Of a stretch of 27,334 nt of DNA, positions 18,001 to 21,000 are shown piece after piece. This DNA comes from Escherichia coli (GTDB lineage Bacteria > Pseudomonadota > Gammaproteobacteria > Enterobacterales > Enterobacteriaceae): assembly GCF_003334315.1 (NCBI RefSeq), contig NZ_QOWR01000063.1. One strand, written 5' to 3'. Positions within the stretch are counted from its first letter, which is position 1, and the number at the start of each line of letters is the position of its first letter. Position numbers: made by a program.

Positions 18001-21000
18001 ATCACTTCGCTGGCTTGGGCGGGTAGCAGCAAGCTGGCGGGAGTGAGTAGCAACTCATCCGGCTTGTCCATTGAGATAACCTGCCCGTCGTCAAGCGGTG
18101 AAGAGAGCCGTTCGAGACGGATATTGATAAGGCGACCACTGTCGGTACTGTTTTTGATCGTTTTGCTCAGCGTGCTGCTGTCACTGTTCATAAACGATGA
18201 TATATCGCCGACATCCAGCGCCTGGGCCGGAGATATTCCGGAAAACAGCAGAGCGAGAGGCAGAAGGTGCTTTTTCATAACAATTCCGTCCAGGAATAAA
18301 GCAGGGGGGCTACCCCTGCTGGTACATCAGAGAGATTAACTGGTCCAGGTCGCGTCGAACTGTACGCTAACGTCGCCGCTCCAGATGCCTTCCGGTAGAG
18401 TGCTGTAATCTGTTACTGCGGTGGTACCATTGGTGGTACCGCTGATGATGGAGAAGGTGAAACCATCCTGTGCGGTGGTACGATTGCTGGCATTGTAACC
18501 GTTAGCCAGCGGGCTAAGGTTGCCGCCCAGTACGCCGTTGGCGGTATCGATCATCACGGTATCGCCAGTTTTTTCGACTGCCGCGCCGTTATAATCCACG
18601 CCCACATTCAGTGTGGAACCTGAGGTATCCAACTGGGTTAATGTGTTGGTGATAAGACGTGAGGTCAGTTTAAAGGCGGTAGCCGTTGAGTCACCCTCGA
18701 TAGCCACGTCAAATAGACCTTTCTGTGAGTTAAAACCTTTAATGCCTTCGGCATACTGGAACGCCAGGCTACCGAGTGGCGTCACAACCAGCTTACTGGT
18801 GGTGTCTTTTTTGGCTGTTGCCGACCAGGTCACTACAGCCTGAGCTGTTACGTCAGCAGCCTGCGCCACACCCATGCCGGTAAACACCGTTACCAGAGCT
18901 ATTGCCAGAACCTTTTTTTTCATTGCATTTCTTCCCGAGTTGAATTGAGGACGTGATGTCCCAGTGAGTCATTTTTTAAAACTAACTTGCCTGGAGTTTA
19001 CTGAACCAACTTATATATTTTTGAGTACAGCTTGGCCTCAGCATTACGCCGATGGGTATACACTGTCTTCACACTACAATTTTCAATTCTGGCAATCGAT
19101 TTAGGTTGCATTCCCTGGGCCGTCATGCGGATAATTTCCATTTCCCGGTCCGTGATTTTATCTTTCTTAATATCTTTTCTCAGGAACCTGCCATTAATCA
19201 CATAGACCAGTTCTTTTCTAATATCACGACTCAGTCCAGCGTATACCACGCCCCTAATATTGCTATTGTAATACCAATAATTTGCTAAGGCCTCTGACTT
19301 TCTGGCCGCAATCAATACGACCTGTTTCCCCTTTACCGCGGATAACCATTCATTATCACGGTTTATAAATTCAGATAAAGAATCCGTACTGAGATTGATA
19401 AACACGAAATCTTTTCTAATTTTCTCCAACGATAGATAAATTAATCTGTCGATATCCACAATCAGTTCAGATAGTCCTTTATAGAAGTAGGCGTCATGGG
19501 GAGACCAGATGTATTTATCAGAACGGTTTTGACATTCCATATGGTTTTTAACCTCATAGTCCCTACTGTAATCACTTTGCCATGTCACTACTTTCCAAAC
19601 CTGTAATTTTTACAGGTGCATTCAGTTTCCTTAGTAAACCGGAAGTAAATAAGATACGTAGTACATATCAATAAAGGTTAAACGAGATTAAGTTTAATTA
19701 TTTTCGATTGGGCTTAAATTTATGTTTTTTTCCCGATGAGTGTCAATATGTGAACGGAAAAGGAATTCAATGGTTAAGTCAATATTTAGAAAAACTGAAA
19801 ATATTGCTTTTTTGATAAGAAGAAAAAGACATTTGGTTTCATAAGGTTATTGGCAATATAACGTTCAATTCTTACTTGCATTTTATATTGGTCAGGAACT
19901 TTGCCCTGAAGTGTTAGGAATAGTCTTAATGCGCTGTGTGATGGACTAGTAAAAAAACAAGTTTTAAGGGTAAGGGATAGAATATAAAACTATGATGAGC
20001 TGTCATTGAAGATGATTTGCCAATCAGTAAGATATTTTAATGGATTAACATGCCGCACAAAATGGTTACAGGTGTTCATTCCAATAAGTAATGGAAAATT
20101 GAACGGGCGTATGTACGTCATCTGTTCGGTAAGCCCCCAAGAGCCAGATTAAGTGAAGTTAAACGAAGGCTGCCAGCTGTCACAGGAACGATGGCCTTTT
20201 TGTCAGGGCACTGCATTCAGTTATCTGTGCGCGTTACTCTAACTGGCACTCGAACGTCGGCGACGGGGTTACCGGTGGATCAGACTGTTCCTGTGGCGTA
20301 AACGTTTTTATGTTAGTACCAACAGATTTACCACATTTATCATCTTAACAGTTTGAGTGAAAATGCAGGCTGCGCCGCAAAGGGAGGAGACTGAGTGGCG
20401 TGTTCAGTCTAAAAGAGGGTTGATGCCAGCATACAGGGGCGAAGCTGGTCAACAAGTCAACATTAAGATAATGGAATATTCGGAGAGAAACGTCAGGCAG
20501 TTGGCCTCAAATGAACAGGAAGAATATATCCCCAGGAAAATTAATGTTGGTGTTATAAACACACCAACATTAATCCGATCTGATTATTAATCAGACAAAT
20601 ATCGTTAATCCGTCGAATTTTGAATCAACGTTTTTTCTTACGACCCTGAACGGCCTTAAAACGTGGATTAGATTTACAAATCACATATAGCCGTCCTTTT
20701 CGCTTCACAATCTGACAGTCTGGATGGCGTTCTTTTGCGGTACGCAGAGAGTTAAGAACTTTCATCACGCCCCCTTTTTCGTGCTAACAAAACGACCAAA
20801 ACGTTGGGTGAATCGTGCAACATTTCCTTCTGATGCCACTGTTCTCAGCTTCCCTGTATAGAACGGGTGCGATTTAGAAGAGACATCAATTGTCACGTAT
20901 GGATACGTTACGCCATCCAGCTCAATCTCACGGTCTGTTTTGATAGTCGAGCCGATTTTAAAGTACTCATCAACACTGGTGTCGTGGAACACCACAGTAC

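Follow-up and report, generated by a model that had tools for sequence, protein, structure and literature searches.

The genes of the lifestyle regulators CsgD and FlhDC of Escherichia coli have long, structured leaders that are targeted by Hfq and small RNAs (sRNAs). The leader of ecpR, which encodes a LuxR/FixJ-type protein that regulates adhesion versus motility, resembles them in that it is long (169 nt) and AU-rich, contains local stem-loops, depends on Hfq and gives rise to RIL-seq chimeras. It differs from them in that its sRNA site has candidate status and in that the hairpin described below is unconserved beyond E. coli and, in an imperfect form, Klebsiella pneumoniae. This hairpin shares with intrinsic terminators and attenuators the arrangement of a leader stem-loop followed by U residues (UUUGG), but its stem is AU-rich, the U residues number only three, and no alternative anti-terminator was found. 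A further type of palindrome known from E. coli is the quasi-palindrome, a hotspot of template-switch mutation that was described in the Ripley model and studied with thyA and lacZ reporters in the Lovett laboratory. Lastly, the regulatory spacer upstream of ecpR carries the motif reported as the binding site of EcpR (MatA), a LuxR-type helix-turn-helix protein (Martinez-Santos 2012):

19894..19920, minus strand: TTCCT-N17-TTCCT, found once in the window and about 211 nt 5' of the transcription start.

The window is the whole 27,334-nt stretch of E. coli DNA that was analysed (contig NZ_QOWR01000063.1), and the following features of the ecpR start region are considered first:

19599..19617, minus strand: palindrome, ACCTGTAA-AAA-TTACAGGT, with 8-bp arms and a 3-nt loop.
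19586..19588, minus strand: GTG, the first in-frame start, opening a mechanical reading frame of 196 aa and preceded by GGAAAG at 19591-19596.
19538..19540, minus strand: ATG start codon of the RefSeq annotation (180 aa), the sole start conserved across genera.

An earlier note had described the plus-strand sequence at 19600-19616, CCTGTAATTTTTACAGG, as a perfect 7-bp inverted repeat with a 3-nt spacer. Direct reading of the sequence agrees with this description, except that one extra complementary pair flanking the repeat extends the arms to 8 bp, so that the full 8+3+8 element is ACCTGTAATTTTTACAGGT at 19599-19617, or ACCTGTAAAAATTACAGGT when read on the ecpR strand. Its distance from the in-frame GTG, given earlier as 12 nt, was roughly right and measures 10 nt from the end of the 19-bp palindrome and 11 nt from the end of the 17-bp core. 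The palindrome is thus real, yet its existence alone is statistically unremarkable. Indeed, when the 768-bp spacer (37% GC) was simulated with a first-order Markov model, 19% of the simulated spacers contained one or more perfect repeats with arms of 8 bp separated by 0-10 nt, and 25% contained two or more repeats with 7-bp arms, two being the observed number. Repeats with exactly the 3-nt spacer were rarer (3% of simulations), a figure that applies to a spacer chosen post hoc. In the 27 kb of the window as a whole, a single 8+3+8 repeat was observed against 0.375 expected, and no second copy of the palindrome was present with up to three mismatches.

The AT-rich spacer had been proposed as the control region of the ecp operon, which is correct and already known from the literature, where it is described as an H-NS-bound promoter island controlled by EcpR/MatA with RcsB, IHF and H-NS. 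Within it, the best sigma-70-like site is TTGACA-N18-TAAATT at 19746-19717, and all eight orthologous leaders that were aligned, drawn from four genera (Escherichia, Klebsiella, Enterobacter mori and Pantoea), retain both hexamers. The transcript can be laid out as follows:

19717..19746, minus strand: ecpR/ecp promoter, TTGACA, 18-nt spacer, TAAATT, matching 10 of 12 consensus positions.
19709..19710, minus strand: probable transcription start, placed by its distance from the -10 element, by a RIL-seq read start and by the published start.
19541..19709, minus strand: 5' leader of 169 nt preceding the conserved ATG, untranslated, AU-rich and Hfq-associated in enteropathogenic E. coli (EPEC).

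The proposed start lies 7-8 nt downstream of the -10 element, and the most 5' read start in the EPEC RIL-seq data, position 281896 of NC_011601, corresponds to window position 19710. It also matches the ecp start that is reported to lie 121 bp 5' of the GTG (Martinez-Santos 2012). With this start, the palindrome falls at +93 to +111 of the ecpR leader, which places it in the transcribed region between the start site and the ATG at 19540.

Where translation begins bears on how the palindrome is sited. The earlier note had placed it next to the weak ribosome-binding site of the first in-frame codon, a placement that has to be corrected. The ECP literature does take the GTG at 19588 as the ecpR start (PMC3900561). 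The RefSeq annotation and conservation across genera favour the ATG at 19540 instead: elsewhere the GTG extension is closed by a stop codon or has no start, and the ATG is kept across genera together with a GAGG Shine-Dalgarno sequence. We also observed that the in-frame GTG and the perfect palindrome are both confined to E. coli proper.

We then considered the predicted folding of the leader RNA. The palindrome hairpin has a predicted energy of -8.3 kcal/mol (z = -3.2 for a 27-nt segment) and is part of both the minimum free energy and the centroid structures of the 190-nt leader. In the ensemble its pair probabilities range from 0.57 to 1.0, with six of the eight pairs at 0.97 or above, while the whole-leader z-score is just -1.66. 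The hairpin is enclosed by a predicted multibranch fold, which is closed by pairing between two further elements:

19548..19555, minus strand: Shine-Dalgarno region of the ATG, GAGGTTAA, predicted to pair with 19684-19691.
19684..19691, minus strand: possible anti-Shine-Dalgarno sequence, TTAATCTC, +19 to +26.

An intrinsic terminator or attenuator was considered and rejected, as a terminator scan made no call, only three of the eight stem pairs are G-C and the tail reads UUUGG. A search of positions 19300-20500 with the Rfam 15 covariance models returned no match at E-values up to 1.

Natural variation in the palindrome was read across E. coli genomes. The canonical palindrome is present in about 4,712-4,716 RefSeq complete genomes, approximately 94% of about 5,000 E. 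coli. The sole frequent arm variant, a C>T change in the 3' arm, is carried by 265 genomes. It occurs on two or more allele backgrounds, EPEC strain E2348/69 among its carriers, and retains the pair as G-U in the RNA (-6.4 kcal/mol). One genome, DS26-1, adds to C>T the partner change G>A, which restores an A-U pair (again -6.4 kcal/mol). With the reverse order of events the intermediate would carry G>A alone, for which the stem is predicted to collapse to -2.1 kcal/mol. Within the 42-nt query, this exact compensating base is the only further change on the C>T background, and by our estimate the probability of such a change by chance is 1-3% if mutations fall at random among the detectable positions. 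Since the variants comprise G-C, G-U and A-U, they favour pairing over base-specific contacts with a protein, although template-switch mutation could yield such a pattern too. A metagenome scan for variants in which the 5'-arm G is mutated, from which the partner base could be read, found none.

The proposal that the palindrome forms a 5'-UTR hairpin is therefore supported by its position within the transcript, by a stable predicted fold and by natural variants that keep the pairing. Whether the palindrome is a transcribed, E. coli-specific leader hairpin that acts, if at all, at the RNA level, and not an EcpR operator, is in our judgement an even call. It would have arisen from an older imperfect repeat, still seen in K. 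pneumoniae-type leaders, that was perfected in E. coli. The AU-rich 8-bp stem with its 3-nt loop would form one local helix, +93 to +111, of a folded, Hfq-associated RNA leader of 169 nt. There it would stand directly 5' of the initiation-like GGAAAG-GUG region and would be enclosed by the long-range fold that may pair +19 to +26 with the Shine-Dalgarno sequence of the conserved AUG. The pairing may be under selection, and the hairpin might modulate access to the start site, the docking of sRNAs or Hfq, or mRNA stability. Overall, it seems to be an ordinary hairpin of the leader, whose putative regulatory role is modest at most.

The best surviving alternative is that the palindrome is neutral: an imperfect repeat perfected by ordinary or template-switch mutation, which is transcribed and may fold, with nothing depending on it. 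We regard this as possible, if on the doubtful side. About 0.2 such repeats per spacer are expected by chance, and the comparison with relatives fits this explanation, as Klebsiella, E. mori, Pantoea and a cryptic Escherichia-labelled lineage share with E. coli the upstream boxes, the promoter and the Shine-Dalgarno/ATG region but not the palindrome. It is perfect in E. coli only and imperfect in K. pneumoniae-type leaders, and other lineages do not have it: two of the eight pairs are kept in the cryptic lineage (by manual reading of the alignment), and in the Klebsiella oxytoca group, Klebsiella indica and Pantoea the corresponding sequence is unrelated. In L001, K. oxytoca, K. indica and Pantoea, windows of 66 nt folded no better than their shuffles. 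Within E. coli, the palindrome is by our estimate no more conserved than its flanks, and the identity of the 42-nt stretch between two deep alleles is, again by our estimate, within neutral expectation. Moreover, about 5% of the genomes carry an arm mutation, among them E2348/69, the ecp operon of which is functional according to the literature. The palindrome is also a quasi-palindrome in the DNA, and the compensating change could therefore have been obtained by template switching without selection. In DS26-1, the C>T mismatch was re-perfected by the exact change of the partner base that such switching would produce, as at the known hotspots; unlike those hotspots, this locus offers a single natural instance (n = 1), which is compatible with templating or with selection for pairing.

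Against neutrality stand the retained G-U pair in the sole frequent variant, the low chance probability estimated above for the compensating base, and the persistence of a hairpin built from the same 5' arm in K. pneumoniae-type and cryptic-lineage leaders (GCCAG/CUGGC, -7.6 and -6.5 kcal/mol, respectively), paired there with different 3' partners. The closing pair is A-U in E. coli versus G-C in the K. pneumoniae type, and 87% of cells are paired over 10 sequences. The counts of such pair changes are small, the covariation statistics (9/500 and 5/500 shuffles) are at a level that 5-25% of unconstrained alignments also reach, and across the genera RNAalifold retains just the hairpin's three outer pairs.

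That the palindrome is a DNA operator, bound at +93 to +111 by a dimeric regulator (EcpR or another) that acts as a roadblock or within a silencing complex, is unlikely in our view. An operator would suit the perfect dyad symmetry of the 8-bp arms and the location in an H-NS-bound promoter island served by EcpR/MatA with RcsB, IHF and H-NS, and we read the A-tract centre, TAAAAATT, as resembling the AT-rich sites of nucleoid proteins. The more specific suggestion of EcpR autoregulation through this site did not hold up: neither TTCCT nor AGGAA occurs within 19599-19617, the sole TTCCT-N17-TTCCT lies far upstream, and other genera have orthologous loci in which EcpR, the promoter and the upstream boxes are retained but the palindrome is missing. 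The EcpR site and the palindrome share the ecp regulatory spacer but differ in architecture, the former consisting of two direct repeats with 17 bp between them, upstream of the start, and the latter being an inverted repeat within the leader. The symmetric positions ±5 of the palindrome vary from G/C to A/T and, in the 265 genomes that represent at least two backgrounds, to an asymmetric G/T; such changes are unexpected for base-specific contacts and so disfavour an operator. Its spacing is also unlike that of known families. LexA sites have an N8 spacing, CRP recognises TGTGA-N6-TCACA, TyrR recognises TGTAAA-N6-TTTACA, and LacI-family operators are even-centred. By direct reading, the palindrome is CTGT-N7-ACAG in the LexA frame and TGTAA-N3-TTACA in the others, and all four were rejected. 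The absence of a second copy, with up to three mismatches, from the 27-kb window also counts against an operator. The literature searched contained nothing usable on binding to the palindrome or on other regulators near ecpR.

The leader hairpin favoured above would sit in an RNA with evidence of Hfq association and with candidate sRNA input. Mutation of hfq de-represses the ecp operon, and in the EPEC RIL-seq data 59 chimeric fragments join the region upstream of ecpR to Spot 42 (odds ratio 2.9, p = 4e-5), an interaction that is significant in the unified library only and has candidate status. The chimera starts run from 281896 to 281803 of NC_011601, that is, from 19710 to 19617 in the window, and thus span the predicted transcription start to exactly the first palindrome base. 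The same table lists chimeras of RprA with the ecpR coding region, as well as of RprA with the csgD leader. The strongest predicted Spot 42 hybrid in the leader, at 107-129, reaches -19.2 kcal/mol, marginal relative to shuffles, 4/60 of which were as good. The putative pairing with AGGUUUGGAAAGUAGUGACAUG (leader 108-129) would extend over GGAAAG-GUG and take in the final 3-4 nt of the 3' arm. Once opening costs are added, however, leader 108-129 is no better than the AUG site (169-186), with all totals near zero, and K. pneumoniae-type leaders do not have the 108-129 site.

One could imagine that the hairpin takes part in an E. coli-specific switch in which Hfq and Spot 42 would set initiation at the GUG (196 aa) against initiation at the AUG (180 aa); we consider this quite unlikely, and if it were true, carbon status would be coupled to expression of the common pilus. 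That the palindrome is instead a part or boundary of a target of Spot 42 or another Hfq-dependent sRNA, with the hairpin competing for pairing or marking the edge of the Hfq-bound region, is very unlikely given the energies and the distribution of the site.

Most E. coli carry ECP/Mat fimbriae, the expression of which varies sharply with lineage and condition. Work on ecp control has so far centred on transcription, through EcpR-RcsB, IHF and H-NS. If the hairpin is irrelevant, which is about as likely as that it matters, the analysis would still keep the palindrome from being mistaken for an EcpR operator and would correct its position relative to the real start codon. If it does matter, it would add a post-transcriptional layer to the control of the operon, comprising leader folding, Hfq/sRNA input and start-codon choice, and the palindrome would offer a simple handle on that layer.

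The ecp (mat) fimbrial operon of E. coli lies on the minus strand of the window, with the following genes around the ecpR upstream spacer.

18998-19588, minus strand: EcpR/MatA ORF; ecpA is next downstream
Upstream of ecpR, divergent: ykgL; beyond it lie ykgO and ykgM

The 1-kb region upstream of ecpR was found in 5,061 of the 5,426 complete RefSeq E. coli genomes and is 100% identical in E. coli B-type and other strains. Among E. coli, positions 19400-20400 fall into two deep allele classes, at ≥99% (2,140 records) versus 90-95% identity (2,194 records), which matches the mat promoter lineages linked to phylogroups in PMC3900561. 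The two alleles are ~93% identical to each other and both retain the palindrome studied here; by our own estimate, the difference-free stretch around it falls within the neutral expectation. In strain EC931 (NZ_CP049118.1), the homologous region matched in two parts, the match overlapping an annotated IS1A transposase; this is an IS1 insertion within or adjoining the ecpR regulatory region.

The 17-bp inverted repeat that the earlier note had placed at 19600-19616 is present at exactly that position and is one pair longer (8+3+8; ACCTGTAATTTTTACAGGT on the plus strand, 19599-19617), reading ACCTGTAA-AAA-TTACAGGT on the ecpR strand. In Markov simulations of the 768-bp spacer (37% GC), at least one perfect repeat with 8-bp arms and a 0-10 nt spacer arose in 19% of runs, and at least two 7-bp-arm repeats, the number observed, in 25%; its existence is therefore by itself no evidence of function. 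Elsewhere in the window, a perfect 18-bp palindrome, GTTATGTTATAACATAAC (21040-21057), stands just upstream of ykgM (start 21031, minus strand) and resembles the ykgM-ykgO Zur operator. Past the ykgO stop (20625), the 3' end of the ykgL ORF holds two more perfect inverted repeats, TGTTGGTGTTATAAACACACCAACA (20545-20569) and TCTGATTATTAATCAGA (20579-20595).

The top promoter-like site of the spacer is TTGACA-N18-TAAATT (19746-19717). We aligned orthologous loci from a cryptic Escherichia-labelled lineage, K. pneumoniae-type, K. oxytoca-group, K. indica, Enterobacter mori and Pantoea; the -35, the -10, the A-run between them and a block GGACTATGAGGTT...ATGGA are conserved, and the leader from about +30 to the Shine-Dalgarno sequence is not. 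This conserved promoter puts the ecpR transcription start near 19709/19710, which agrees with a start reported 121 bp upstream of GTG, and thus the palindrome at +93 to +111 of the mRNA. Spot 42-ligated leader fragments from EPEC RIL-seq, with read starts from NC_011601 281896 down to 281803 (window 19710 to 19617), independently support this start. The A-run (19725-19731, minus strand) counts 7 A in the window and in the other E. coli alleles seen, against 8 in K-12 MG1655 and its close relatives; their promoter spacer is therefore 19 rather than 18 nt long, a possible factor in the known silence of ecp in K-12.

Annotation of the ecpR start is inconsistent: RefSeq uses ATG 19540 (180 aa), and GTG 19588, the start of the mechanical ORF (196 aa), is the one used in the ECP literature (PMC3900561). 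E. coli proper alone has an open 16-codon in-frame extension from GTG. In K. pneumoniae-type leaders no in-frame start precedes ATG, in the K. oxytoca group a stop stands two codons before it, and in the cryptic lineage stops follow the GTG-equivalent position; the sole start common to all compared genera is ATG with GAGG. The palindrome thus stops 10 nt short of GTG, a lineage-specific codon, and 58 nt short of the conserved ATG.

An EcpR operator, one of two readings offered before, is unsupported. The palindrome lacks a TTCCT box, and its conservation does not follow that of EcpR; TTCCT-N17-TTCCT, the reported EcpR site, has a single occurrence in the window (0.04 expected), 211 nt before the transcription start (19894-19920). 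Read directly against the consensus sequences of LexA, CRP, TyrR and LacI-type operators, the half-site spacing of the palindrome does not fit, and no related site was found elsewhere in the window. Reviews describe EcpR/MatA acting on the promoter region together with RcsB, IHF and H-NS, and the spacer is known as an H-NS-bound promoter island; neither these reviews nor the promoter-island source mentions the palindrome.

The hairpin reading fares better. As RNA, the segment is predicted to form an 8-bp stem with an AAA loop (-8.3 kcal/mol, z = -3.2), present in both the MFE and centroid structures of the 190-nt leader with pair probabilities of 0.57-1.0 (≥0.97 for six of the eight pairs). 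It is not terminator-like, and no Rfam family matches the region. The RNAalifold consensus also holds a long-range helix between UUAAUCUC (+19 to +26, 19684-19691) and the Shine-Dalgarno sequence GAGGUUAA (19548-19555), both on the minus strand, kept in E. coli, K. pneumoniae-type, cryptic-lineage and partly E. mori leaders. UUAAUCUC may thus be an anti-Shine-Dalgarno for the conserved AUG, and the helix would close the leader fold around the hairpin; it shows no covariation because both sides are conserved in sequence.

Stem states in E. coli (exact-word searches) and predicted hairpin energies

Canonical G-C pair: ~4,712-4,716 genomes; -8.3 kcal/mol
C>T in the 3' arm (TTATAGG; G-U in RNA): 265 genomes; -6.4 kcal/mol
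C>T plus partner G>A (CCTATAA-AAA-TTATAGG; A-U): 1 genome (DS26-1); -6.4 kcal/mol
G>A alone: hypothetical state, no genome identified in these searches; -2.1 kcal/mol
Other 5'-arm or loop changes: ~4-5 genomes

At least two allele backgrounds carry the C>T variant, one being EPEC E2348/69, where a published primer also has it. On the C>T background, G>A in DS26-1 is the sole extra change detected within the 42-nt query, and we estimate the chance of its being exactly the compensating base at 1-3%. The pattern is more in line with pairing than with base-specific contacts by a protein, with the compensated state seen in one genome; however, template switching in a DNA quasi-palindrome would yield the same change without selection for pairing.

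In K. pneumoniae-type leaders, the homologous repeat GCCAGTAA-ACT-TTATAGGC is imperfect: it closes with G-C (A-U in E. coli) and contains a single A.A mismatch together with the same G-U pair. In these and in cryptic-lineage leaders, the 5' arm is predicted to enter an alternative stem, GCCAG/CUGGC (-7.6 and -6.5 kcal/mol). E. mori has just a weak stem of 4 bp here; the K. oxytoca group, K. indica and Pantoea are unrelated in sequence at this point, and their local folds do not exceed shuffles. Pair counting across leaders had 87% of cells paired with modest covariation, a level that the tool warns can arise without constraint. A persistent stem-loop is weakly suggested in the E. coli/K. pneumoniae group, with no evidence of one beyond it among the leaders compared. 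The cryptic lineage (labelled Escherichia coli, strain SCPM-O-B-8794), also present in human gut metagenome contigs, has a leader without the palindrome and an EcpR 81-84% identical to that of the window, versus 92-93% for the closer K. pneumoniae protein. K. oxytoca NBRC 105695 has a second, more distant ecpR-like gene (59% identity) ~7 kb from the first on the same contig, so some Klebsiella have two ecp-type regulators.

Loss of Hfq de-represses the ecp genes in EPEC (ecpR log2 change -2.8), and the RIL-seq supplementary tables hold 59 ecpR leader::Spot 42 chimeras (NC_011601 281803-281896) and 18 ecpR CDS::RprA chimeras (281406-281509), neither pair being discussed in the main text (PMC8550237). 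The best predicted Spot 42 hybrid covers leader 107-129 (-19.2 kcal/mol), involving GGAAAG-GUG and the final 3-4 nt of the 3' arm; with opening energies included it is not better than a site at the AUG, and such pairing is treated as a lead only. A neutral palindrome is nearly as likely an account as a functional one. The hairpin is an ordinary kind of feature, for which a functional role in the ecpR RNA is plausible, at about even chances.
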